From: Clostridia bacterium
GTDB lineage: Bacteria > Bacillota > Clostridia > Oscillospirales > Acutalibacteraceae
Direction: 5' to 3'
NCBI GenBank assembly: GCA_017433225.1
Contig: JAFRHS010000044.1
Span: 28,317-92,316 of the forward strand
DNA: 64,000 bases
This document shows, piece by piece, positions 17,332 to 58,626 of this stretch. Each line of letters opens with the position of its first letter. The stretch's first letter is position 1. The translations under genes and the position numbers were made by a program. The notes under the pieces were generated by a model. It had not been told where the DNA came from. It saw only the letters and a program-made list of their open reading frames with translations, and did no database searches.

Positions 17332-17349
17332 CTTAGCCAAGATAAGAGC

Positions 17350-17390
17350 GAAGGCGTTCCGATCCACATCGGAGCGCCTTCTTCTTTTTT
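17350..17390 (+). terminator. Promoter-proximal intrinsic terminator (attenuator) in the glnA leader
   Basis: 14-bp stem GAAGGCGTTCCGAT / ATCGGAGCGCCTTC, loop CCAC, then TTCTTTTTT. Lies about 40 nt upstream of the glnA ATG. Confidence 0.75.
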
Positions 17391-17432
17391 ATCAATTTTT
17401 TGAATCGATGTAATGTCGAGAAGGAGGATCTT

Positions 17433-18776
17433 ATGAGTAAGCTCACAAAAGAACAGATTTTGCAGAGCGCAAAAGAGAATCACGTGGAATTTGTCAGACT
17501 TCAGTTCACCGACCTGTTTGGCATCATGAAGAACGTTGCCATCACGGTGTCGCAGCTCGAAAAGGCGCTGGACAATGAGTGCATGTTCGACGGGTCCTCG
17601 ATCAACGGATTCGTTCGCATCGACGAGAGCGACATGTATCTGCATCCCGATTATGACTCCTGGGCGATCGTTCCCTGGAGAAAGCACGAAGAGATCCAGA
17701 CCGGCCGTCTGATCTGTTCTGTCTATATGTCCGACAACAAGACCCCGTTTGAAGGCGATCCGCGAAACGTGTTCCAGAAAGTCATCGACGAGGCAAAAGA
17801 GATGGGTTACGGTTTCAACGTTGGCCCCGAGTGCGAATTCTTCCTTTTCAAACTGGACGAGGAAGGAAAACCGACTACCGAGGTCGCGGACAAGGCCGGG
17901 TATTTCGACCTGAACCCGATCGACCACGGCGAGAACTGCCGGAGAGATATCTGTCTGGCGCTCGAACAGATGGGTTACGTGATCGAGGCATCCCACCACG
18001 AAGTCGCGGAAGGACAGCATGAGATCGACTTCCAGTTCGGCGAAGGCCTCATGACCGCCGACCGTGTCATGACCTTCAAACATGTCGTCAAGACCTATGC
18101 CACCAAGCACGGCCTGCATGCGACGTTCATGCCGAAACCCATCTACGGCATCAACGGCTCCGGCATGCACACCAATATGAGCCTTTACGAACTCGAGACC
18201 GGCAAGAACGTCTTCGACGATCCGGACGGCGACCTCGGTCTTTCCAAAGAGGCCTATGCGTTCATCGCCGGCATCATGGAACACGTCAAAGGCATCGCGG
18301 CCTTCTCGAACCCGACCGTCAACTCCTACAAGCGTCTGGTGCCCGGCTATGAGGCTCCGAGCTACCTCGTCTGGAGCACTTCCAACCGCTCCTGCCTGGT
18401 CCGGATCCCGGCCAGCCGCGGCAAGGGCACCCGTGTCGAGCTCCGCTGCCCGGACCCGACCTGCAACCCGTACCTGGAGATGGCGCTCTGCCTTGCAGCC
18501 GGTCTGGACGGCATCAAAAGAGGACTTGTTCCGAAACCCGCTTATGACGAGAATGTGTTCGTGCTGAGCGATGAGGAACTGGCTGCCAACGGCATCGACT
18601 GTCTGCCGGGCACTCTGGAAGAGGCCATTGCCGAAGCCGAAAAAGACCCGTTCGTCCGCGAGACCCTCGGCGCTCATGTATTCGACAATTACATCGCCGG
18701 AAAGAAAGCGGAATGGGACGACTACAGAACGAAGATCTCTCAGTGGGAGATCGACCAGTATCTGATCAACTATTAA
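17433..18776 (+). CDS. glnA: Glutamine synthetase type I
   Basis: 447 aa. GPECEFFLF, HHEVAEGQHEIDF, GSGMHTNMS, NSYKRLVPGYEAP, RVELRCPDP all intact. AAGGAGG Shine-Dalgarno. Confidence 0.95.
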   Translation: MSKLTKEQILQSAKENHVEFVRLQFTDLFGIMKNVAITVSQLEKALDNECMFDGSSINGFVRIDESDMYLHPDYDSWAIVPWRKHEEIQTGRLICSVYMSDNKTPFEGDPRNVFQKVIDEAKEMGYGFNVGPECEFFLFKLDEEGKPTTEVADKAGYFDLNPIDHGENCRRDICLALEQMGYVIEASHHEVAEGQHEIDFQFGEGLMTADRVMTFKHVVKTYATKHGLHATFMPKPIYGINGSGMHTNMSLYELETGKNVFDDPDGDLGLSKEAYAFIAGIMEHVKGIAAFSNPTVNSYKRLVPGYEAPSYLVWSTSNRSCLVRIPASRGKGTRVELRCPDPTCNPYLEMALCLAAGLDGIKRGLVPKPAYDENVFVLSDEELAANGIDCLPGTLEEAIAEAEKDPFVRETLGAHVFDNYIAGKKAEWDDYRTKISQWEIDQYLINY

Positions 18777-18788
18777 GGGGAGACACCT

Positions 18789-19796
18789 ATGATCTATCCG
18801 ATCTATCCGGAAGGATATCACAGTAAACTCAGTCAGAGAGAAACGCAATACGCGATCAAAACGGTCAAAGATACGTTCCAGTTCAAACTCAGCAAAGCGC
18901 TGAACCTCGACCGCGTGACCGCGCCGCTCATGGTGACGGAGGCCAGCGGTCTCAACGATGACCTGAACGGTGTGGAGCGAAAAGTCACCTTTACGATGAA
19001 GAACATGGAAGGGGAGGGCCAGGTCGTTCAAAGCCTTGCCAAATGGAAGCGCCACGCGCTCTGGTACTATGGCTATGAGCCCGGGACCGGCATCTATACC
19101 GACATGAACGCCATCCGCCGGGACGACGATATGGACAACCTGCATTCTCTGTATGTCGACCAGTGGGACTGGTGCCGGGTCATCCGCCGGGAAGACCGCA
19201 ACCGGGAATTCCTGCATGACATCGTCAAAAAGATCGTCCGTGCGATCGTTGAGACGAACGACGTCGTCAAAGAGACCTATCCGATGCTGGGCTTTGAGAT
19301 GAGTGACGAAGTCTATTTCGTCACGACCCAGGAACTGGAAGACCGCTGGCCGGAGCTGAGCCCGAGAGAGCGTGAGGACGCCATCGTCAAAGAACACGGG
19401 ACCGTGTTCATCGAACAGATCGGCGGCGCTCTGAAGAGCGGTCAGAAACATGACGGCCGTGCGCCGGACTATGATGACTGGTCGCTCAACGGCGACATCT
19501 TCGCATGGAACGAGCTCCTCGGCTGCGCGTTCGAGATCAGCTCGATGGGCATCCGTGTCGACGCCGAGAGCATGCATCGCCAGCTGGAGATCGAGGGCTG
19601 CCTCGACCGGGAGGAACGTCCGTTCCACAAAGGGATCCTGGACGGCACCCTGCCGCTCACCATCGGAGGCGGCATCGGTCAATCGCGCATGTGTATGCTG
19701 CTCCTGGAAAAAGCGCACATCGGCGAAGTGCAGTGCGCACTCTGGCCCGATGAGATGCGTGCGGAATGTGCCGAGCACGGCATCATCCTACTGTGA
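18789..19796 (+). CDS. asnA: Aspartate-ammonia ligase
   Basis: 335 aa with an AsnA-type class II synthetase-like sequence (TAPLMV, GIGQSRMCMLLL). 12 nt after glnA. Confidence 0.9.
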   Translation: MIYPIYPEGYHSKLSQRETQYAIKTVKDTFQFKLSKALNLDRVTAPLMVTEASGLNDDLNGVERKVTFTMKNMEGEGQVVQSLAKWKRHALWYYGYEPGTGIYTDMNAIRRDDDMDNLHSLYVDQWDWCRVIRREDRNREFLHDIVKKIVRAIVETNDVVKETYPMLGFEMSDEVYFVTTQELEDRWPELSPREREDAIVKEHGTVFIEQIGGALKSGQKHDGRAPDYDDWSLNGDIFAWNELLGCAFEISSMGIRVDAESMHRQLEIEGCLDREERPFHKGILDGTLPLTIGGGIGQSRMCMLLLEKAHIGEVQCALWPDEMRAECAEHGIILL

Positions 19797-23354: not shown

Positions 23355-23377
23355 AATTGCAACCTGAGTGGCGAAGA

Positions 23378-23421
23378 AGTCACAGAACGCAGAGGATTCT
23401 GCGCTCTGTGACTCTTTTTTT
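23378..23421 (+). terminator. Promoter-proximal intrinsic terminator (attenuator) in the gltB leader
   Basis: AGTCACAGA A CGCAGA GGAT TCTGCG C TCTGTGACT followed by CTTTTTTT. Lies about 40 nt upstream of the gltB ATG. Confidence 0.75.
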
Positions 23422-23459: not shown

Positions 23460-26400
23460 ATGAAAAATGAAACTTTGCAAAACAATCTGCTCTACAGTGA
23501 GCAGTTCGAACACGATGCCTGCGGGATCGGGACCGTGGTCTCCATCAAAGGGGAGGCGTCCCGGCGGATCGTCGACAGCGCATTGAAGATCGTCGAGAAA
23601 CTGGAACACCGGGCCGGAAAAGATGCGGCCGGGGAGACCGGAGACGGTGTCGGCATCATCGTCGCCACCCCGCACGAGTTCTTCAAAGCCAAAGCGGCGG
23701 AGTGCGGCATCGAACTGGGCGATGCACGGGAATACGGCATCGGCATGCTGTTCCTGCCGCAGGACAAACTGCGCCGGGCACAGGCCAAGAAGATGCTCGA
23801 GATCATCACCGCCAAAGAAGGTCTCCGATTCCTCGGCTGGCGGGTCGTCCCGACCTGTCCCGAGACGCTCGGGCAGAAAGCGATCGACAAGATGCCGTAC
23901 ATCGAGCAGTGTTTCATCGAAAAGCCGGCCGACTGCGCGAAGGGCATCGACTTTGACCGCAAACTCTACGTCATCCGCCGGGTCTTCGAACAGTCCAACG
24001 ACAACACGTATGTCTGCTCGCTGTCCTCCCGGACCATCGTTTACAAAGGCATGTTTCTCGTCCAGCAGCTGAGAAGCTTCTATCGGGACCTCCAGGAAGA
24101 GGACTTCGTCTCGTCCATCGCGATGGTCCACTCCCGATTCTCCACCAACACGAACCCCAGCTGGGAACGGGCGCACCCGAACCGGTTCATCGTCCACAAC
24201 GGCGAGATCAACACCATCCGCGGCAACGCGGACCGGATGCTCGCCAGAGGCGAGACCATGGAATCGCCGTTCCTGAATGAGAACTACGAAAAGATCCTGC
24301 CGGTCGTCGATACCGCCGGGTCCGATTCCGCCATGCTCGACAACACGCTCGAGTTCCTCGTCATGAACGGCATGGACCTGCCGCTCGCGATGATGATCTG
24401 TGTCCCGGAACCCTGGAAGTCCGATGACACCATGAGCCGCGAGAAAAAGGACATGTACCACTACTATTCCACGATGATGGAACCCTGGGACGGCCCTGCG
24501 GCCCTGCTGTTCACCGACGGCGACCAGGTCGGCGCCTGTCTCGACCGGAACGGTCTGCGGCCCTCCCGCTACTATGTGACCGATGACGACCTGCTCATCC
24601 TGTCCTCGGAAGTCGGTGTCCTGCCGCTGGACGACCGGCACATCGTCAAAAAGTCCCGTTTGCAGCCCGGAAAGATGCTGCTCATCGATACGAGAGAGGT
24701 ACGCATCATCTCCGATGACGAGTGCAAAGAGCGGTACGCACATCGCCACCCTTACGGAGAATGGCTCGACCTGTACCTCAAAACGCTGCACGAACTGCCG
24801 ATCCCCAATAAGAAAGTGGAGGAGTCCACGCAGGAAGTCCGGGACCGTCTCTACAAGGTCTTCGGCTACACCTATGAGGACATCAATACGTCCATTCTGC
24901 CGATGGCGAAAAACGGCTCGGAGCCGATCGCTGCCATGGGCATCGACATCCCGCTGGCCGTCCTCTCCGAAAAGCACCAGCTGCTGTTCAGCTATTTCAA
25001 ACAGCTGTTCGCGCAGGTGACGAACCCGCCGATCGACGCCATCCGGGAAAAGGTCATCACCGATACCCAGGTCTACGTCGGTTCGGACGGCAACCTTCTG
25101 GAGGACAAAGGAGACAACTGCCAGGTCCTCGAGATCAGCCATCCGATCCTGACCAGTGTCGACCTTTTGAAGATCAAAAACATGGATCTGCCCGGCCTGA
25201 AAGTGGCGACGGTCAGCATCCTGTATTACAAGAACACGTCCCTCGAAAAGGCGGTCGACCATCTCTATGTGGAGTGCGACAAAGCCTACAAGAAGGGCGC
25301 GAACATCATCATCCTGTCGGACCGCGGCGTCGACGAGAACCACGTGGCGATCCCGTCGCTGCTGGCCGTCTCGGCGATGGAGCAGTACCTCATCCGGACC
25401 AAGAAGAGGACGGCGATCTCCATCATCCTGGAGAGTGCCGAACCCCGCTGCGTCCACGACTTTGCGACGCTTCTCGGCTACGGCGCCCGGGCGGTCAACC
25501 CGTACCTCGCGCACGAGTGCATCGAAGAGTGCATCGAGAAGGGCCTTCTCGACAAGGACCCCCATACGGCGATCGACGACTACAACGAGGCGGTGCTGAA
25601 CGGCATCGTCAAGATCGCCTCCAAAATGGGGATCTCGACCATCCAGTCTTACCAGTCCGCACAGATCTTCGAGATCGTCGGGATCCGGGAAGACGTCGTC
25701 GAGAAATACTTCACCAATACCGTGAGCCGTGTCGGCGGCATCGGCCTTCCGGAGATCGCGGAAGGGGTCGAATACCGGCATGACCACGCCTTTGACCCGC
25801 TGGGCCTCGGCACCGACACCACCGTCGACAGTATGGGTTACCACAAGCTGCGCAACGGCGCCGGGAAAGAGGATCATCTCTATGACCCGCGGACCATCAT
25901 CCACCTGCGCAGAGCGGTCCAGGACGGCGATTATGAGCGGTTCAAAGAGTATTCCGCCATGGTCGACGATGAGAACGTCCCGCATACCTTGCGCGGACTC
26001 CTGGCATTCGAATACCCGGAACAGGGCATCCCGCTCGAAGAAGTGGAACCCGCTTCCGAGATCGTCAAACGCTTCAAGACCGGTGCCATGTCCTACGGAT
26101 CTCTCTCCCGAGAGGCCCACGAATGCATGGCAGTGGCGATGAACCGTCTCGGCGCAAAGTCCAATACCGGTGAGGGCGGCGAACTGCGCGACCGGTTCGG
26201 GACCGAGCGCAACAGCGCGATCAAACAGGTCGCGTCCGGCCGCTTCGGCGTCACGAGCGAATACCTCGTCTCGGCCAAAGAGATCCAGATCAAACTGGCG
26301 CAGGGCGCGAAACCCGGCGAGGGCGGTCACCTCCCGGGCAAAAAAGTGTATCCCTGGGTCGCGGCGACCCGGTTCTCCACACCCGGCGTTTCGCTGATCT

Positions 26401-27995
26401 CTCCGCCGCCGCACCACGACATCTATTCCATCGAGGACCTGGCGCAGCTCATCTATGACCTGAAAAACGCCAACCGCGATGCGCGCATCAACGTCAAACT
26501 CGTCTCCGAGGCGGGGGTCGGCACCATCGCCTCCGGCGTCGCCAAGGGCGGGGCAGAGGTCATCCTCATCTCCGGCTATGACGGCGGTTCGGGCGCGGCT
26601 CCTCTGAGCTCGCTCCACAACGCCGGTCTGCCGCTGGAACTCGGCCTCGCCGAGACGCACCAGACGCTCATCGAGAACGGCCTGCGTACGCGGGTCCGGG
26701 TCGAGGCCGACGGCAAACTGATGACCGGCCGCGACGTGGCGATCGCCTGCATGCTGGGCGCCGAAGAGTTCGGCTTTGCCACGACGCCGCTGATCGCCAT
26801 GGGATGCGTCATGATGCGTGTCTGCAATCAGAACACCTGTCCGGTCGGCATCGCGACCCAGGACCCGCGCCTGCGGGCTCGCTTTGCCGGAAAACCGGAA
26901 TACGTCATCAACTTCATGATGTACATCGCCGAAGAACTGCGTGAGATCATGGCAAAACTCGGTGTCCGCACCGTCGAGGAACTCGTCGGGCGCACAGACT
27001 TCCTGAAAGTGAAAGAGAAGGCGATCACACACCGCGCCGCCATGGTAGACCTTTCGAAGATCCTCGGGAACCACAATGCGGACGGCTGCAACGCAGTCCA
27101 CCATATCGACGGCGACGAGTTCGATTTCTGTCTGGAAGAGACTCTGGACATGAAAGAACTGGTCCCCGCGTTCCGCAAAGCGCAGAAGGCGGGGAAACCG
27201 ATGGATCTCGCGCTCGAGGTCACGAGCACGGACCGTTCGTTCGGCACGATCCTCGGTTCGGAAGTGACCAGAGCGTACGGCATCGATGCACCGGAAGACC
27301 TGTGCCGTGTCCGCTGCAAAGGCGGCGGCGGTCAGTCGTTCGGAGCGTTCCTGCCAAAGGGCGTCTCCATCCGGCTCGAAGGGGACTGTAACGACTATTT
27401 CGGCAAAGGACTCAGCGGAGGGAATCTGGCCGTATATCCGCCGGAAGATGCCGCATTCCGGGCGGAAGAGAACATCATTATCGGCAACGTCGCTCTGTAC
27501 GGCGCCACCGCCGGCAAGGCATTTGTCCGCGGCATTGCGGGCGAGCGGTTCTGTGTCCGGAATTCCGGCGCGGAAGCCGTCGTCGAAGGCGTCGGAGACC
27601 ACGGCTGTGAATACATGACCGGAGGTACGGTCGTCGTTCTGGGACGCACCGGAAAGAACTTTGCGGCCGGGATGAGCGGCGGGACCGCCTACGTCCTCGA
27701 CGAAGAGCATGATCTGTACCGCAGACTCAACAAGGAAATGGTCGAAGTGAGTACGGTCAGCAGCAAGGCGGACATTTCCAAACTGAAGGAGATGCTGGAG
27801 GAGCATGTCGCCGCCACCGGCTCTGAACTGGGGCAGAGGATCCTCGACTCGTTCGATGACTATGTCCCGTCCTTCAAGAAGATCATCCCGCACGAGTATG
27901 CGGTCATGAAAGACAAGATCTACGAAGAACTCAGCAAAGGCCTGTCGCAGGAGGATGCCGAACTCGAGGCATTCAACGCGCTGATGGGCGCATAA
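23460..27995 (+). CDS. gltB: Glutamate synthase large subunit
   Basis: 1511 aa. N-terminal EHDACGIG amidotransferase, FMN and Fe-S domains, GXGG repeats in the C-terminal domain. Confidence 0.95.
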   Translation: MKNETLQNNLLYSEQFEHDACGIGTVVSIKGEASRRIVDSALKIVEKLEHRAGKDAAGETGDGVGIIVATPHEFFKAKAAECGIELGDAREYGIGMLFLPQDKLRRAQAKKMLEIITAKEGLRFLGWRVVPTCPETLGQKAIDKMPYIEQCFIEKPADCAKGIDFDRKLYVIRRVFEQSNDNTYVCSLSSRTIVYKGMFLVQQLRSFYRDLQEEDFVSSIAMVHSRFSTNTNPSWERAHPNRFIVHNGEINTIRGNADRMLARGETMESPFLNENYEKILPVVDTAGSDSAMLDNTLEFLVMNGMDLPLAMMICVPEPWKSDDTMSREKKDMYHYYSTMMEPWDGPAALLFTDGDQVGACLDRNGLRPSRYYVTDDDLLILSSEVGVLPLDDRHIVKKSRLQPGKMLLIDTREVRIISDDECKERYAHRHPYGEWLDLYLKTLHELPIPNKKVEESTQEVRDRLYKVFGYTYEDINTSILPMAKNGSEPIAAMGIDIPLAVLSEKHQLLFSYFKQLFAQVTNPPIDAIREKVITDTQVYVGSDGNLLEDKGDNCQVLEISHPILTSVDLLKIKNMDLPGLKVATVSILYYKNTSLEKAVDHLYVECDKAYKKGANIIILSDRGVDENHVAIPSLLAVSAMEQYLIRTKKRTAISIILESAEPRCVHDFATLLGYGARAVNPYLAHECIEECIEKGLLDKDPHTAIDDYNEAVLNGIVKIASKMGISTIQSYQSAQIFEIVGIREDVVEKYFTNTVSRVGGIGLPEIAEGVEYRHDHAFDPLGLGTDTTVDSMGYHKLRNGAGKEDHLYDPRTIIHLRRAVQDGDYERFKEYSAMVDDENVPHTLRGLLAFEYPEQGIPLEEVEPASEIVKRFKTGAMSYGSLSREAHECMAVAMNRLGAKSNTGEGGELRDRFGTERNSAIKQVASGRFGVTSEYLVSAKEIQIKLAQGAKPGEGGHLPGKKVYPWVAATRFSTPGVSLISPPPHHDIYSIEDLAQLIYDLKNANRDARINVKLVSEAGVGTIASGVAKGGAEVILISGYDGGSGAAPLSSLHNAGLPLELGLAETHQTLIENGLRTRVRVEADGKLMTGRDVAIACMLGAEEFGFATTPLIAMGCVMMRVCNQNTCPVGIATQDPRLRARFAGKPEYVINFMMYIAEELREIMAKLGVRTVEELVGRTDFLKVKEKAITHRAAMVDLSKILGNHNADGCNAVHHIDGDEFDFCLEETLDMKELVPAFRKAQKAGKPMDLALEVTSTDRSFGTILGSEVTRAYGIDAPEDLCRVRCKGGGGQSFGAFLPKGVSIRLEGDCNDYFGKGLSGGNLAVYPPEDAAFRAEENIIIGNVALYGATAGKAFVRGIAGERFCVRNSGAEAVVEGVGDHGCEYMTGGTVVVLGRTGKNFAAGMSGGTAYVLDEEHDLYRRLNKEMVEVSTVSSKADISKLKEMLEEHVAATGSELGQRILDSFDDYVPSFKKIIPHEYAVMKDKIYEELSKGLSQEDAELEAFNALMGA

Positions 27996-28010
27996 AGGAG
28001 GGGAGACAAT

Positions 28011-29498
28011 ATGGGTAAAACAACAGGATTCCTGGACTATGACCGGAAGACCAACCCGGCCGTCGCTCCTCTTCAGAGGCTGCAGGACTTTCACGAATTC
28101 CACCCGCCGCTGCAGGTGGAGGAACGGCAGGAGCAGGCAGCGCGCTGTATGAACTGCGGCATCCCGTTCTGCCAGTCTGCCGTGGCATTCGGAAAAGGGC
28201 CGGCCGTCTCCGGCTGTCCGCTCCACAACCTTATTCCGGAGTGGAACGACGAATTGTATAACGGTCATTACGAGAGCGCAAAAGCCCGTCTTTTGAAGAC
28301 GGCCAGTTTCCCGGAGTTCACCGGACGTGTCTGCCCGGCCCTCTGTGAGGTGGCCTGCACCTGCGGGCTGAACGGAGACCCTGTCACAGTACGGGAGAAT
28401 GAACTCTTTCTCATCGAACAGGCCTATGCCACCGGGAACATGAAGCCGCATGCGCCCGCCGTCCGTACCGACAAAACGGTCGCGGTCATCGGTTCCGGAC
28501 CCTCCGGCCTCGCCACCGCGGATGCCCTCAATAAACGCGGGCACAATGTCACTGTCTTTGAGCGGGAAGACCGCATCGGCGGACTGCTGATGTACGGGAT
28601 CCCGAATATGAAACTGGAGAAACAGATCATCGAGCGCCGCAGGGCGCTGATGGAGGCCGAAGGTGTCGTGTTCCGAACGGGTTGCAACGTGGGGGCAGAC
28701 GTCTCTGCAGAAGAGCTTCTGGCGGAATACGATGCCGTGGTCCTCTGCTGCGGCGCCAAACAGGCCCGCACGCTGAATGTCGGAGAAGAACAGGTCGGGA
28801 ACGTCTTTCCTGCTGTCGACTTTCTGACCCGCCAGACCCGGAACCTGCTCTCCGGAAACGCAATGACGGAGGCAAAAGGGAAAAAGGTCATCATCGTCGG
28901 CGGCGGAGACACCGGGAACGACTGTGTCGGCACCTGTCTCCGTGAAGGCTGCGCCTCGGTCACACAGATCGAAATGATGCCGAAACCGCCGGCAGAACGT
29001 CCGGCGAGCAATCCCTGGCCCGAATGGCCGGTCCAGCTCAAAACGGACTACGGCCAGGAAGAGGCGATCGCGGTGTTCGGCAAAGATCCGCGCATCTATC
29101 AGACCACCATCAAGGAAGTCATCCCGAACAAAAAAGGTCTCATCAAAGCGGTGAAGACCGTGAAACTGGAGTTTGAACGGGACCCGGAGACCGGCCGGAT
29201 GATGCCTCGGGAAGTCGAAGGTTCCGAAGAGACGCTGGCCTGCGACCTTCTGCTGATCGCAGCCGGATTCACCGGATGTGAAGCCTACACGCCGGGCGCG
29301 TTCCATGTGGAATGCGGTCCCCGGAACACCGTTCAGACCTCTGCCGGAAGCTATGCGACCGGTGTGGAGAAAGTCTTTACGGCGGGCGACATGCACCGGG
29401 GCCAGTCTCTGGTCGTCTGGGCCATTGCCGAAGGCAGGGCCTGCGCAGTGGAAGTAGACCGATATCTGATGGGTTATACCAACCTTCCGTTGGTGTGA
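28011..29498 (+). CDS. gltD: Glutamate synthase small subunit (NADPH)
   Basis: 495 aa. Cys clusters CMNCGIPFC and CPALCEVAC. Dinucleotide folds [12 protein letters not shown] and [13 protein letters not shown]. Confidence 0.95.
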
Positions 29499-53399: not shown

Positions 53400-54150
53400 A
53401 AAGCGTTCGCAACCGGAAGAGGAGTCTCACCCACACTTGTTAAATATTTCACAAATAGGGGACGTTGACCGGTCAATAGGGGCCCTATGGCTGTTTTCCC
53501 GGGTGTTTGGCCGGAACACCACACGGTTTTGACCTGTTTTGAGGCGATTTAAGGCTCAAAAAGTCTAAAAAACCGCGTAGATTAGCCAAAAATTGGCATT
53601 TTAGAAGGCCTAATCTGGCTCTGAAAGCCTTAAAATGGCCCAAATATACAAATTCAACCAGAATTTTTCGCACAGAGGCTGGTTCGTTCCAAAAAAACTG
53701 GTTGAATGAGGAAAATCGCTCAAATGCCATTCAACCAGAATTTTTGAGACAGAGGCTGGTTCGTTCCAAACATTTCTATTGAATGGAGCCAATAGAAGCT
53801 TTTGAAACGAACCAAGGTTCGAATGAAATAACGTAGTTGAATGAAAGAAACAGATCGAATAGAAAGAAATAAAATGAAGGAAGCATTGAAACTAAAACTG
53901 TTATGGAATGAGAAAAAGAAAAACACAACTGCAAAAACGGAAATAAATGCAGAAGTGTAATTACTATATAATATAAATATACCAAAAACGGCGTAGATAC
54001 TGGGGTTTCGGGCAAAGCCTGTCTAGGGGCTGTATTCTGAAATTCCTCCCCTCAATTATACAAAACATTTATTTTGTATAATTATATGGAAAATTTTCAG
54101 GGGCAGAAATACAGGATTTCCGGCCATTCCCCCTCGGTAAATCGCCAAAA
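53400..54150. repeat. AT-rich non-coding region with nested direct and inverted repeats
   Basis: Two 42-nt direct repeats (53652-53693, 53729-53770; 39/42 identical) with an internal AACCAG/CTGGTT hairpin. An inverted partial copy near 53800. Many TGAATGA-like units. A 12-bp perfect inverted repeat at 54054-54083. No convincing ORF. Confidence 0.7.
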
Positions 54151-54193
54151 AAATACACTTAGAGGACTCTTATTGATCACTCTAAGTGTATTT
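54144..54193 (-). terminator. Intrinsic terminator of the glnA2-ANTAR-HAD operon
   Basis: AAATACACTTAGAG / CTCTAAGTGTATTT 14-bp stem with a U-run on the minus strand. Confidence 0.7.
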
Positions 54194-54718
54194 CTTTTTA
54201 CCGATATTGATGAGCTTCAGCCACCACGGCGGGTTCTGCAGCATGTTCAGCGCCGGTTCGATCATGGTTTCCCGGAACCCGTCGACTTTGGGGTCGGTCT
54301 TTATCCACCACTCGGACAGCCGGTATTTCTCCCAGAAAAAATTGGCGTCGTCCAGGATGACGAATCCATCGACCCGGTATGGATATTTCCTCAGATATTC
54401 CAGGACTTCTCCCGGCCGGTCCCTCGTTTCCGACACTCCGGTCTTGTCGTATAGCTTGATGCCGTACATCGCGAGACCGGTATCGACGATCTTCCCCCCT
54501 ACATCGCGCAGCTTCGGATCTCTGTTCCAGCCGTAGCGCCAGGAGGACGTGAGGATGATGTTCACCGTGTTGCCATGTTGTTCGGACAATTCGATGAGGC
54601 GTTTCACCCGTTTGATCGCTTCCGGGTCCAGCGGGTTCTCGGTGATGCTTTTGACCGTATCGTAAAAGGACATGGAATTGATGACGCCGTCGACATCCAT
54701 AAAAATGAGGTAATGCAT
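54182..54718 (-). CDS. HAD-superfamily (HAD_SAK-like) phosphatase-fold protein
   Basis: MHYLIFMDVDGVINS (DxDG motif). AAGGAGG Shine-Dalgarno before ATG 54718. Confidence 0.6.
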   Translation of the reverse strand: MHYLIFMDVDGVINSMSFYDTVKSITENPLDPEAIKRVKRLIELSEQHGNTVNIILTSSWRYGWNRDPKLRDVGGKIVDTGLAMYGIKLYDKTGVSETRDRPGEVLEYLRKYPYRVDGFVILDDANFFWEKYRLSEWWIKTDPKVDGFRETMIEPALNMLQNPPWWLKLINIGKKKYT

Positions 54719-54738
54719 GGGCGCCTCCTTCCCTGTCC

Positions 54739-55326
54739 TCAATACTTGCCGTATGTGTTGATGATGTTCTGCGCGATTTCCGCCTTCTTCTTGCAGTTGT
54801 CCATCGCGGCTTTCTCGATGTAACGGTGCGCTTCCTGCTCGGTGAACTTTAGGTTCTCCATGAGGAGCCCTTTGGCGCGATTCACGAGCCGGATCTCTTT
54901 CATCTTCTCTTCGAGAGACGCGGTCTTCTGTTCGAGCGCCTTGAGCCGCTGCTGCGTGGCCACCAGGAGTTTCATCGTCTGGAACGCCTGCTGTGCGGTA
55001 CAGGGCCGCGGCAGCGTCAGGACACCGTACTCTTCCACTTTATAGGAGACCTGCTCGTAGACGTCGTTCTTGACCATCATCATGACGCCGCAGCTCTGGT
55101 TCTGGGCAAGCTCGATGGCGAGCTCCGTGCCCATCTCATCTTTGAGCGGCGCGTTGATGACGACGATGTCGACGCTCCGGTCGACGAGCATCCGCTGTGC
55201 TTCTCCGGCGGAGTGGACGCACGTCAGCGGTGAAAACTGTTCCTTGGGCAGGATCTTCTGAAAGAATTCGACCGCTTTGTCGGTCGTCGAGACGACCATG
55301 ACGCTGGCAGCCTGTTCCTGTCTCAT
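54739..55326 (-). CDS. ANTAR-domain RNA-binding antiterminator with pseudo-receiver domain (NitR/AmiR-like)
   Basis: C-terminal coiled coil plus ANTAR (IRLVNRAKGLLMENLKFTEQEAHRYIEKAAMDN). The receiver lacks the acidic pocket and phospho-Asp (VVSTTD, DIVVINAPL). ATG 55326 has better spacing to AGGAGG than 55332. Confidence 0.8.
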   Translation of the reverse strand: MRQEQAASVMVVSTTDKAVEFFQKILPKEQFSPLTCVHSAGEAQRMLVDRSVDIVVINAPLKDEMGTELAIELAQNQSCGVMMMVKNDVYEQVSYKVEEYGVLTLPRPCTAQQAFQTMKLLVATQQRLKALEQKTASLEEKMKEIRLVNRAKGLLMENLKFTEQEAHRYIEKAAMDNCKKKAEIAQNIINTYGKY

Positions 55327-55361
55327 GTGCATCCACCTCCTTTCCGGGGTTTTGTTTCAAA

Positions 55362-56558
55362 TCAGAAGAGTTTCAGATAGTCGTCGCCGAGGATGTCGCG
55401 CACGAATGCGGAGTTCAGCGCCTTGTCGCGGGCGGCTTCGAGCGTCAGCGGGAGCTTCTTCAGGTCGGTGCGGTCCGCTTTGCCGTCGGCGAGGTCGAGG
55501 TTCGTGGGCTCGCCGGGGTCCATGTTGTTCCGGACGCCGTCGAGGCCGGCATAGATGAGCAGAGCGTACGCGATGTACGGGTTCGAGCCCGAGTCCGGCG
55601 AACGCAGTTTCAGGTGCCGGCGGTCTTTCGAGCACTCCGGGATCATGATGAGCTGGTTCCGGTTCTCGGACGACCACGTGATGTAGATGGGAGCCTTCTT
55701 CTCTCCGAAGCGCCGGTAGGACTCTTCCGTCGGGTTCAGGAAGAAGGTGATCTCCTCGATGTGTTTGATGATGCCTGCCATGAAGGCGCGGAGCTTGTCT
55801 TCCCCGTCCATGGCATGGACCATGATGTTGATGTGCATGCCGTTGCCGCTGTGTTCTTCGAGCGGCTTCGGCGAGAAGTCGGCAAAGAGGCCGTTGCGCA
55901 TGGCGATCGTCTTGATGACGGCGCGCAGCGTCAGGGTGTTTTCCGCTGCGGTCAGCGGGTCGGAATAGCGGAAGTCGACTTCGTTCTGCCCGGGGCCGGC
56001 TTCGTGGTGCGAGGACTCCGGTACGATGCCCATCTCGGACAGCGTGAAGCAGATCTCGCGGCGGACGTTCTCGCCCTTGTCTTCGGGGGCGATATCGAGG
56101 TAACCGGCTTCATCGAAGGGCTCCTTCGTGGGTCTCCCCTCGTCGTCGGTCTTGAACAGATAGAATTCGCTCTCGTTGCCGAAGGTGCAGTCCACGCCAC
56201 TCTTGTTCGCGTATTCGATGGCGGCCTGCAGAATGGACCGTGAATCGCCCTCAAAAGGCGTTCCGTCCGGGTAAGTCACGTTGCAGAACATACGCACAAC
56301 GCGGCCGTTGGAGGGCCTCCAGGGCAAAATGGAGAGCGTCGACGGGTCCGGGTGCAGGTACAGGTCGGACAGGACATAGTCCTTGAAGCCGTCGATGTTG
56401 CTCGAAGCGAACGGGATGCCTTCCTCGAAGGCCCGTTTCAGCTCACCTGGCATGATGGCGATGTTCTTCTGTTTTCCGAAAATATCCACGAATGCGAGGC
56501 GGATGAACTTGACATCCTCTTCCTCGACGAAGGTCAAAACATCTTCACGTGTATACAT
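55362..56558 (-). CDS. Glutamine-synthetase-family protein (398 aa) with substituted catalytic residues
   Basis: The GS fold is clear (GNESEFYLF, HHEAGPGQNEVDF, GNGMHINI), but GEKKAP replaces PGYEAP, LIMIP replaces LVRIP and HLKLRSPD replaces RVELRCPD relative to GlnA at 17433. Confidence 0.8.
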   Translation of the reverse strand: MYTREDVLTFVEEEDVKFIRLAFVDIFGKQKNIAIMPGELKRAFEEGIPFASSNIDGFKDYVLSDLYLHPDPSTLSILPWRPSNGRVVRMFCNVTYPDGTPFEGDSRSILQAAIEYANKSGVDCTFGNESEFYLFKTDDEGRPTKEPFDEAGYLDIAPEDKGENVRREICFTLSEMGIVPESSHHEAGPGQNEVDFRYSDPLTAAENTLTLRAVIKTIAMRNGLFADFSPKPLEEHSGNGMHINIMVHAMDGEDKLRAFMAGIIKHIEEITFFLNPTEESYRRFGEKKAPIYITWSSENRNQLIMIPECSKDRRHLKLRSPDSGSNPYIAYALLIYAGLDGVRNNMDPGEPTNLDLADGKADRTDLKKLPLTLEAARDKALNSAFVRDILGDDYLKLF

Positions 56559-56679: not shown

Positions 56680-56708
56680 TTGACAAAGTCAAAAACAGGT
56701 GCTAAAAT
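56680..56708 (+). promoter_or_regulatory. Sigma-A-type promoter of amtB::glnK
   Basis: TTGACA (56680-56685), 17 nt spacer, TAAAAT (56703-56708). Confidence 0.55.
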
Positions 56709-56716
56709 TCACACAT

Positions 56717-56767
56717 AAACGACAACGGCGTCATCGAGTTTTTCGCCGGTGTCGTTTTTTATTTTTT
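56717..56767 (+). terminator. First leader terminator upstream of amtB
   Basis: AAACGACAACGGCG / CGCCGGTGTCGTTT 14-bp stem followed by TTTTATTTTTT. Begins within a few nt of the predicted +1. Confidence 0.7.
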
Positions 56768-56769
56768 CA

Positions 56770-56820
56770 AGGCAACGGTGTCTCTTTTTGAAAGAGTGCG
56801 CAGTTGCCTGATTTTTTTTG
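56770..56820 (+). terminator. Second leader terminator upstream of amtB
   Basis: AAGGCAAC ... GTTGCCT stem enclosing CTCTTTTTGAAAGAG, followed by GATTTTTTTT. Confidence 0.6.
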
Positions 56821-56835
56821 GGAGTGATAGAAACG

Positions 56836-58626
56836 ATGGAAAACAATATCATGACGCTGTTGTCCGGTGGACTCAACAATGCATGGGTCCTTCTCGGCGC
56901 GGCGCTGGTGTTCTTTATGCAGGCTGGTTTCGCGATGTGCGAAGCAGGTTTTACCAGAGCAAAGAATGCCGGCAACATCATTATGAAGAACCTGATGGAT
57001 CTGTCGATCGGCACGGTCCTGTACTGGCTGGTCGGGTTCGGGATCATGTTCGGCTCTCAGTCCGCTTTCTTTGGAGCCATTGATCTCTTCACACAGGGGA
57101 GTTACGCAGATGCCCTGCCGGACGGTGTTTCGATATTTTCATTCTTCATTTTCCAGACGGTCTTCTGTGCGACTTCTGCGACGATCGTTTCCGGCTCGAT
57201 GGCGGAGCGCACCAAGTTCAGTTCTTACTGTTTGTACAGTGCGCTGATCAGTCTTGTCATCTACCCCATCGAAGGCCACTGGATCTGGGGTGGCGGCTGG
57301 CTGGCAGCCATGGGATTCCATGATTTCGCCGGTTCGACTGCGGTCCATATGAATGGCGGCGTGATTGCTCTGATCGGTGCGGCACTTCTGGGTCCTCGCA
57401 TCGGCAAATACGGAAAAGACGGGAAACCGCGCGCCATCCCCGGTCACAATATCCCGATCGCCGCACTCGGTGTCTTTATCCTCTGGTTCTGCTGGTTCGG
57501 ATTCAATGGCTGTTCGACCGTCAGCATGATGGGCGATGATGCGAGTCTTGCCGGAAAAGTCTTCTTTAATACGAACCTTGCAGCGGCAACGGCAACGGAT
57601 ACCGCACTGATTTATACATGGATCAAGTATAAAAAACCGGACGTTTCATTGACTCTGAACGGCTCACTGGCCGGTCTGGTCGGTATTACAGCCGGGTGCG
57701 ATATCGTCGATCCCTGGGCGGCAGCGTTGATCGGTATCCTCTGTTCGCTCGCCATGTTGATCGGTGTGGAATTCGTCGATCGCAAACTGAAAGTAGATGA
57801 TCCTGTTGGTGCGATCAGTGTACACGGTATTGCAGGTGCTTTTGGTACGATCCTGACCGGTATCCTTTGCACGAGCGATCACCTTCAGGACGCCGGCATG
57901 AGCCGTGGACAGTTTGCCGGTATCCAGATCCTTGGTGTCCTCTCCGTGATCGTTTGGGCCGGTGCGTGTTCCTATGTCCTGTTTGTTACGTTGAAGCACA
58001 CGCTCGGTCTTCGTGTCTCTCGTGAAGAAGAGCTGTCCGGTCTGGACATTCCGGAGCATGGACTGGTCAGCGCCTATGCAGATTTCATGCCGTCGATCGA
58101 AAGCCATGTCAGCCTTCCTGTGAAGCTCAATACGGAGGAACTGGATGCGGCTGATGCTGCCGTCGCGAAAGAACTGGCCGGACTGACTGAAACACCGGTC
58201 CCGGTCGAGCATGCAGTCCCGGTCAAAGTGGTCAAAGTGCCCCGTGACACCGGACTCAAAGCTCCGGTCTCGATCCATAAGCTCAGCATCGTCATCAAGC
58301 AGGATAAACTCGACGCATTGAAAGAAGCTCTGATCGAAATCGGTATTACCGGCATGACGGTCACGAATGTTCTTGGCTGTGGTATGAGGCACGGTGTCAC
58401 CCATTACCGTGGTGCCGAGCAGGAGATCTATCTGCATCCGAGGATCGAAGTCGAGGTCGTCGTTTCGAAGATCCCGGTCGATACGGTCGTCGAAACGGCC
58501 AAGAAAGTCCTTTACACCGGCCATTACGGCGATGGGAAGATCTTTGTCTATGATGTTGCCAATGTCATCAAAGTAAGGACCGGAGAAGAAGGTTATGCTG
58601 CTCTGCAGGATGTCGAGCAGTTCTGA
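56836..58626 (+). CDS. amtB: Ammonium transporter fused to a C-terminal P-II (GlnK/GlnB-like) domain
   Basis: AmtB core (FFMQAGFAMCEAG, FAGSTAVHMNGG) of about 410 aa, a ~60-aa linker, then P-II (GITGMTVTNVLGCG...YRGAEQ...GDGKIFVYDV). Confidence 0.9.
   Translation: MENNIMTLLSGGLNNAWVLLGAALVFFMQAGFAMCEAGFTRAKNAGNIIMKNLMDLSIGTVLYWLVGFGIMFGSQSAFFGAIDLFTQGSYADALPDGVSIFSFFIFQTVFCATSATIVSGSMAERTKFSSYCLYSALISLVIYPIEGHWIWGGGWLAAMGFHDFAGSTAVHMNGGVIALIGAALLGPRIGKYGKDGKPRAIPGHNIPIAALGVFILWFCWFGFNGCSTVSMMGDDASLAGKVFFNTNLAAATATDTALIYTWIKYKKPDVSLTLNGSLAGLVGITAGCDIVDPWAAALIGILCSLAMLIGVEFVDRKLKVDDPVGAISVHGIAGAFGTILTGILCTSDHLQDAGMSRGQFAGIQILGVLSVIVWAGACSYVLFVTLKHTLGLRVSREEELSGLDIPEHGLVSAYADFMPSIESHVSLPVKLNTEELDAADAAVAKELAGLTETPVPVEHAVPVKVVKVPRDTGLKAPVSIHKLSIVIKQDKLDALKEALIEIGITGMTVTNVLGCGMRHGVTHYRGAEQEIYLHPRIEVEVVVSKIPVDTVVETAKKVLYTGHYGDGKIFVYDVANVIKVRTGEEGYAALQDVEQF

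Follow-up and report, generated by a model that had tools for sequence, protein, structure and literature searches.

The closest described counterparts of the system reported here are AmiC-AmiR of Pseudomonas aeruginosa and NasS-NasT of Paracoccus. In both, a sensor with a periplasmic-binding-protein fold (type I or NrtA-like) is encoded in the same operon as an ANTAR protein of about 195 amino acids (aa) that combines a non-phosphorylatable, receiver-like N-terminal domain with a coiled coil, leader terminators are overridden through hexaloop hairpins, and the signal is a specific, nitrogen-related substrate (amide and nitrate, respectively). Apart from the fold of the sensor and the nature of the signal, these features are shared by a locus that we analysed in a 64,000-nucleotide stretch of DNA (hereafter the window; positions 28,317 to 92,316 of contig JAFRHS010000044.1, assembly GCA_017433225.1) from a Clostridia bacterium of the family Acutalibacteraceae. 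Here, the candidate sensor, encoded at positions 55362-56558 of the window, has the fold of glutamine synthetase (GS) and probably forms oligomers, central nitrogen status is the presumed signal, and the partnership is a proposed one.

The GSI-alpha type of GS is itself a nitrogen sensor in Bacillus, where the feedback-inhibited enzyme acts on the MerR-type DNA-binding regulators GlnR and TnrA through its E flap, its D50 loop and the thong. Glu304 of the E flap, aided by Arg62 of the D50 loop, reads out bound glutamine, and the tails of GlnR and TnrA lodge between these two elements and the alpha14/15 thong, whose helices also join the two rings of the enzyme (PMC9249791). The Bacillus GS is fully active, whereas the protein described here is, in the clade of the window, a putatively non-catalytic paralogue that coexists with a separate true GS and has an RNA-binding partner; in the window protein, Lys and Asp stand in place of the two read-out residues, Glu304 and Arg62.

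Two clostridial loci come closer in gene content. The glnA gene of C. saccharobutylicum, which we take to encode a working enzyme, cloned by complementation, is located, like the gene studied here, immediately upstream of an ANTAR regulator gene (nitR) and next to glutamate synthase (GOGAT) genes; this arrangement is covered in a review that calls the NitR system 'not fully understood' (PMC6316151). In C. thermocellum, two reports give the cluster Clo1313_2036-2030 as GATase_2, Glu_synthase, Fer4, two further genes, GS and ANTAR (PMC4676874, PMC9888227). In the papers that could be searched, neither locus is presented as a case of a pseudoenzyme that partners an ANTAR protein. No GS-like partner of an ANTAR protein was found in that literature, and a 2025 review of RNA-binding antiterminators makes no mention of glutamine synthetase.

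The locus is thus a variant of two known themes, the moonlighting GS and the sequestration of an ANTAR protein by its sensor, a placement based on comparative genomics and indirect genetics. The reading that we favour, at slightly better than even chances, is that a pseudoenzyme derived from GS monitors nitrogen status and restrains the ANTAR antiterminator in the way that AmiC restrains AmiR. To our knowledge, Clostridia possess neither NtrBC nor GlnR/TnrA systems; nitrogen sensing in these bacteria is poorly understood, and the module gives a concrete, testable answer.

The GS-like protein and its family

The GS-like protein shows 40% identity to the GlnA of the same window (447 aa; BLASTP, E=3e-104) and matches the Pfam domains Gln-synt_N (2.9e-23) and Gln-synt_C (8.5e-79). 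Against the GlnA equivalog model TIGR00653, it scores 316.5 bits, below the cut-off of 429.15 bits and compared with 548.9 bits for the window GlnA. The AlphaFold2 model has a pLDDT of 85 and a pTM of 0.90 and, in a Foldseek comparison, a TM score of about 0.9 to archaeal and Gram-positive GSI-alpha structures.

For residue roles and the enteric numbering (E327, R344, E357), we rely on what we take to be those of the S. typhimurium GS. The B. subtilis numbering, with Glu304 in the E flap and Arg316 (PMC9249791), agrees with this assignment. Alignment to GlnA bears out the three substitutions named in an earlier note on this DNA that had been made from the sequence alone: the flap motif PGYEAP has become G-EKKAP, with a one-residue deletion and a Glu to Lys change (E327K), LVRIP has become LIMIP, with loss of the ATP-phosphate Arg (R344M), and RVELRCPD has become HLKLRSPD, with loss of a metal ligand (E357K). 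That list was incomplete, having missed the loss of the D50-loop Asp (FDGSS to FASSN, D50A) and a Met at the equivalent of S273 (S273M). The motifs that the note had listed as retained are present as NESEF, SHHE..GQNE and GNGMH; E129, E131, E212, E220 and H269 are all kept, so that E357 is the only one of the metal ligands to have changed. The protein, estimated in the note to be about 50 aa shorter than GlnA, is 49 aa shorter, owing to an internal deletion of 13 aa, the absence of about 27 C-terminal aa (the last helix) and small indels. Given the confidently modelled GS fold and the broken active site, we describe the product as a predicted well-folded GS-like protein that has lost its catalytic site; with the fold present and the defining catalytic features failed, it does not appear to be a GlnA enzyme. 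A decaying pseudogene or a chance open reading frame (ORF) is ruled out by the ratio of nonsynonymous to synonymous substitution rates (dN/dS), which is 0.07-0.13 for this gene within the clade with the dead site and 0.11 for the neighbouring ANTAR gene.

A homologue search gave thousands of matches, among which the best 120 are nearly all 394-402 aa long and include few named members (uncultured Clostridia and Acutalibacteraceae). One genome per species was scanned, and the 593 relatives confirmed in this way are a lower bound; the family, which we denote short K-flap, is accordingly present in at least 593 species-level genomes, including cultured gut isolates (Claveliimonas, Mordavella, Suipraeoptans, [Eubacterium] hominis) and rumen taxa. 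The locus-level counts given below refer to the best 80 of these relatives, which come from Oscillospirales, Lachnospiraceae, Christensenellaceae and three Treponema genomes, with cultured isolates among them.

A residue census of the 80 loci separates the marks of the whole family from those of the window's clade. The flap position E327 is Lys in 79 and Arg in one and is never Glu; the flap Lys is accompanied throughout the family by the replacement of Asn264, the 13-aa deletion, an altered D50 loop and a C-terminal truncation, the alignment stopping about 27 residues short of the GlnA C-terminus in every member so that the alpha15 helix of the thong is gone. The residues that bind the amino-acid ligand (E131, Y179, E220, G265, H269, R321 and R359) are invariant in 80/80. 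R344M, E357K and D50A, by contrast with the family-wide marks, are confined to the clade of the window, in which members with 69-70% identity to the window protein have E357K only, closer ones add R344M, and position 50 is Ala, Ser, Asp or Glu; the three losses were apparently acquired one after another. Other lineages have independently lost further residues (E129K in three loci, E129A, E212K in two loci, D50N and R339H). Among representatives clustered at 50% identity (1841 matches at E<=1e-30 or better), heavily degenerate catalytic signatures are frequent in those with the highest scores, so that loss of catalysis appears to recur within this GS-like radiation. Repeated loss of catalytic residues at the dN/dS values given above suggests that catalysis is dispensable whereas the protein itself is strongly conserved.

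The changes that define the family fall in the elements through which the Bacillus enzyme communicates. The position equivalent to Arg62 is Asp in 32, Gly in 29 and Glu in 6 of the 80 loci (Asp in the window), and a Glu lies next to it in 57/80. Flap and D50 loop thus show a reciprocal change of charge, from Glu to Lys in the flap and from Arg62 to Asp or Gly with an adjacent Glu in the loop. Together with the missing thong helix, these replacements mean that the remodelled elements are those that dock the regulator and report glutamine in GSI-alpha.

Two observations on the wider radiation stand apart. Two of the 50% representatives, P0241 (4424 aa) and P0242 (2757 aa), contain 12 and 6 separate GS-like stretches, respectively, and may be read-through tandem arrays, artefacts of assembly or gene calling, or real multi-GS polyproteins. 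In three loci from Treponema/Treponemataceae (L041, L060 and L065), the GS-like gene and its ANTAR neighbour are present with 57-58% identity to the window protein, which suggests that the two genes moved jointly from gut or rumen Firmicutes into Treponema.

A conserved pair with an ANTAR antiterminator

The ANTAR gene follows the GS-like gene in the same direction after 29 nt (55333-55361), which confirms the adjacency stated in the earlier note. Its product matches the ANTAR domain of Pfam (8e-19), the Response_reg match being below the cut-off, and ends without an SRF tail. In an alignment that also included AmiR, Asn60 takes the place of the phospho-acceptor Asp of Rv1626 and EutV; of 77 homologues, 62 carry Asn at this position, 5 Asp, 4 Tyr and 3 Gln, and Ser-Ala/Ser takes the place of the DD pair of acidic residues found in receivers. 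This protein, like AmiR, cannot be a normal response regulator and, for want of a phospho-acceptor Asp, would need an input other than a kinase. A classical two-component input was rejected because the phospho-acceptor is gone and the 22 largest clusters of neighbour genes, only some of which were scanned against Pfam, show no recurrent kinase-like family.

The GS-like gene and the ANTAR gene form a strictly conserved two-gene module. The ANTAR gene is directly downstream of the GS-like gene in 76/76 testable loci, the contig ending at this point in the remaining four, with a median gap of 33 nt and a gap of at most 72 nt in 72 of the 76. The pair is also kept in two further loci of the degenerate clade. 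The reciprocal look-up, from ANTAR homologues with 69, 60 and 50% identity, found a Gln-synt gene of 397-401 aa directly upstream in 3/3; this homologue search covered close relatives, and clostridial NitR was beyond its reach. The pair alone is constant, as its surroundings fall into at least three unrelated contexts. The first consists of a divergent GSIII gene and an amtB-PII fusion, with GSIII adjoining the pair in 24 loci. In the second (context B; at least 19 loci), a split GOGAT cluster (GATase_2, Glu_synthase, Fer4, Pyr_redox_2, GXGXG) precedes the GS-like and ANTAR genes, an order with which the C. thermocellum cluster agrees wherever its genes are named. The third, that of the window's clade, contains radA or asnB.

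The same contexts bear on the possibility that the GS-like protein modulates a real GS (GlnA or GSIII), for example through mixed or poisoned oligomers or as a glutamine buffer, and is tied to the ANTAR gene by co-expression only. The protein keeps the GS fold and most of the regions that form the ring interfaces, a true GS is always present, and GS activity relies on active sites shared between subunits (PMC9249791). The partner GS varies, however, being GSI-alpha in the window and GSIII in many other loci, so that a single conserved hetero-oligomer is unlikely, and the invariant adjacency to the ANTAR gene and the pseudo-receiver would be left unexplained; we consider modulation of a real GS quite improbable.

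Among the genes often found downstream of the ANTAR gene are pyrG (CTP synthase), carA and probably carB (L030, L046, L005, L009, L047, L065 and L087), and asnB and a GMP synthase gene, the latter assigned by sequence reading only, also recur near the pair. The regulon may extend to such glutamine-consuming amidotransferases.

Leader attenuators, proposed control and alternatives

Experiments have defined what ANTAR proteins recognise: a hairpin that overlaps a terminator, with a stem of 3 bp or more and a hexaloop whose first base is A and whose fourth is G (PMC3369931). With the corresponding pattern, C[AANGNN]G, the only two exact matches in the window are the hairpins in the leader of the amtB-PII gene, the divergent neighbour of the GS-like gene. 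Here, a sigma-70-type promoter (TTGACA..TAAAAT, 56680-56708) is followed by tandem terminators (fold z = -3.95), the second of which is formed by pairing of AGGCAAC (56770-76) with GUUGCCU (56803-09) and followed by a U-run at 56812-19. The amtB-PII fusion is a likely target of regulation.

The leaders of glnA and gltB also have hairpins that overlap the 5' arms of terminators, and the fold z of the gltB leader is -3.3. The GAGC..GUUC stem of the glnA leader recurs with the loop AAAGGC in the leaders of GOGAT clusters in related loci, and an orthologous variant of the gltB loop that also starts with G (GAAGAC) is present in locus L057. Both leaders are probable ANTAR targets, and GlnA, which is likely to be the true enzyme, and gltBD are likely targets of regulation. 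Of the three attenuated nitrogen operons proposed in the earlier note, all three have leader terminators, and the canonical A1/G4 hexaloops are limited to amtB.

In related loci, units of C[AANGNN]G and a terminator are found in the leaders of glnN/amtB, which share the tandem architecture of the amtB leader, in those of GOGAT clusters and, often, in that of the GS-like operon itself. Overall, the hexaloop element in these loci is 6-10 times denser beside the operon than elsewhere (70 matches in about 128 kb and 126 in about 1560 kb, respectively). Unlike the classic arrangement of two adjacent hairpins, there is one hairpin per terminator here, and the units are single or in tandem about 50 nt apart. 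A scan of the window with Rfam at gathering thresholds yielded three tRNAs and no curated leader family. In 25 of the 80 loci (L003, L007 and others), the GS-like/ANTAR operon has a hexaloop and terminator attenuator of its own about 150 nt upstream, which implies autoregulation.

We infer physical binding between the two proteins, the identity of the ligand and a negative sign of control, in the following form. The GS-like protein, having kept the fold and the residues that contact the amino-acid ligand, probably still binds glutamine or glutamate in its conserved amino-acid pocket, glutamine being the simplest choice; the catalytic requirements, namely the flap Glu, the D50 Asp, one ligand of the n2 metal and the ATP-phosphate Arg, are gone. 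The ligand would set the conformation of the E flap, with its Lys, and of the acidic D50 loop, which would close over it. In nitrogen-replete cells, the protein would grip the ANTAR dimer by the pseudo-receiver and the coiled coil and keep it off RNA, a sequestration of the AmiC-AmiR and NasS-NasT type. When nitrogen is scarce and glutamine low, the freed ANTAR protein would capture C[AANGNN]G hairpins in nascent leaders, and these hairpins, by occupying the 5' arms of the terminators, would let RNA polymerase read into amtB-glnK and probably into glnA and gltBD. More speculatively, in the Glu to Lys changes at metal positions (E357K, E129K, E212K), the Lys ammonium group might replace the charge of the metal and yield a pocket that does without Mg2+.

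The same two proteins might be partners with the opposite sign of control, the ligand-bound GS-like protein activating or chaperoning the ANTAR protein in the manner of feedback-inhibited GS and GlnR. The E flap, D50 loop and thong changed in this family are indeed the elements with which GS folds and activates the C-terminal tail of GlnR (PMC9249791), and the attenuator that many relatives carry on the GS-like/ANTAR operon would fit a positive loop of both proteins. However, both known sensor-ANTAR pairs, AmiC-AmiR and NasS-NasT, sequester, and deletion of the syntenic GS gene in C. thermocellum raised, rather than lowered, the expression of nitrogen genes (urease) (PMC5887222). This phenotype is the one expected if the GS-like protein restrains the antiterminator, and an activating sign seems to us unlikely.

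Several points weigh against sequestration by a GS-derived sensor altogether. Most members of the family keep all metal, ATP and glutamate ligands (about 75 of the 80 still have D50, the six metal ligands, R321, R339, R344 and R359) and could be true ligases with altered chemistry; the pairing could be an inheritance from an ancestral clostridial glnA-nitR operon with a working glnA; the membership of Clo1313_2031 of C. thermocellum in the short K-flap family follows from gene order alone; the loops of the glnA and gltB leaders start with G, and A at this position is required by EutV and NasR (PMC3369931); and the GS-like operon of the window has no attenuator (z = +0.7), unlike those of many relatives.

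The first two points are those on which an explanation without any partnership would draw. The protein would then be a ligase of altered specificity or a weak GS left over from a glnA-nitR operon, and the window copy an inactive remnant that persists because of some unrelated structural role. Such an origin is compatible with the adjacency of nitR and a functional glnA in C. saccharobutylicum (PMC6316151) and with the good scores of GS-family enzymes, such as gamma-glutamylputrescine synthetase, against the GS-like protein. PuuA, the gamma-glutamyl-polyamine synthetases GlnA2-4 of Streptomyces and glutamate-methylamine ligase are likewise paralogues with the GS fold that score under the GlnA equivalog cut-off and whose ammonium site is altered. 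They differ in being active ligases with their metal and ATP ligands in place, whereas in the window protein a metal ligand has become Lys and the ATP-phosphate Arg has become Met, and what defines the short K-flap family is that it is linked to a regulator. A relic would not be expected to persist beside the ANTAR gene in all 76 loci, in at least three neighbourhoods and after transfer into Treponema, nor to lose metal ligands at least five times independently while dN/dS stays at about 0.1. Furthermore, the flap Glu, which is needed for ammonium chemistry, is absent from all 80 members, and the ANTAR protein would be left without a visible input. The odds of this explanation are, in our estimate, low.

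The proposal of the earlier note, a GS-derived sensor gating an antiterminator, thus gains from the pairing, the pseudo-receiver and the loss of residues under purifying selection, and loses in generality in that R344M and E357K belong to one clade. In a wider form, which we advance tentatively and at somewhat less than even chances, the short K-flap proteins would be the central nitrogen sensor long sought in Clostridia and in many Firmicutes of gut and rumen, and would make up a third structural class of sensor controlling ANTAR proteins, one that arose from an enzyme through subfunctionalisation. The Lys residues of the flap and of the metal sites would substitute for ammonium and Mg2+ and let the pocket signal glutamine without turning it over, and the regulon would comprise amtB-glnK, GSI/GSIII, GOGAT, asnB and possibly pyrG and carAB. 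If sequestration by the GS-like protein is true, this would be a clear example of an enzyme that has become a dedicated sensor and whose evolutionary intermediates survive today. Sequestration would also account for the deregulated nitrogen metabolism and the raised ethanol yield that follow deletion of 'glnA' in C. thermocellum, and would be useful for engineering these organisms and for understanding the nitrogen economy of gut and rumen. In the C. thermocellum deletion study of Rydzak (2017), nitrogen-assimilation genes reportedly went up while intracellular glutamine rose.

Coordinates and minor features of the window

Table. The GS-like/ANTAR module, its candidate targets and the adjoining HAD gene in window coordinates
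Feature	Coordinates	Strand	Basis and remarks
glnA leader	17346..17391	+	GAGC[GAAGGC]GUUC 17346-17359 overlaps 5' arm of 14-bp terminator 17350-17381, U-run
GlnA, canonical GSI-alpha	17433..18776	+	All catalytic residues; TIGR00653 549 bits versus 429
gltB leader	23368..23421	+	GUGGC[GAAGAA]GUCAC 23368-23383 overlaps 5' arm of terminator 23378-23414, U-run
gltB (1511 aa) and gltD (495 aa), glutamate synthase	23460..29498	+	Assigned by size and position
HAD_SAK_2 ('Swiss Army Knife RNA repair' HAD) gene	54182..54742	-	Pfam; overlaps ANTAR stop by 4 nt
ANTAR antiterminator: pseudo-receiver N-terminus, coiled coil, ANTAR domain	54739..55332	-	Pfam, alignments
GS-like predicted pseudoenzyme, GSI-alpha fold	55362..56558	-	398 aa; Pfam, BLASTP, TIGR00653, AlphaFold2, Foldseek
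amtB attenuator unit 1	56718..56767	+	GAC[AACGGC]GUC 56721-56732 in 5' arm; terminator stem 56718-56756, U-run
amtB attenuator unit 2	56770..56819	+	GGC[AACGGU]GUC 56771-56782 in 5' arm of second terminator
amtB-PII (GlnK-like) fusion	56836..58626	+	Pfam Ammonium_transp 3e-123, P-II 2e-22

The ORF of the amtB-PII fusion (602 aa) is listed with a TTG start at 56818, and the start is probably the ATG at 56836 instead; the same fusion is found in related loci (cluster 15). The ORF at 18789-19796 (+, 335 aa), 12 nt after glnA, is presumably an AsnA-type aspartate-ammonia ligase, an assignment made by sequence reading only; if it is asnA, the glnA attenuator would govern two ammonium-assimilating ligases.

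The HAD gene that the earlier note had placed after the ANTAR gene is present in the window and, given the overlap of the reading frames, is probably co-translated with it. It is not kept beside the pair even in close relatives: no homologue was found next to the pair in the 80 loci and two close relatives, and a role of HAD_SAK_2 as a third component of the module was rejected.

Downstream of the HAD gene, in a gene-poor stretch of about 750 bp, the region 53652-53785 (+) contains two 57-nt copies of a repeat that are 82% identical and 77 nt apart, each an inverted repeat, and a third copy may lie near 53560-53620, to judge from small overlapping ORFs. This element could be REP-like or a small mobile element.

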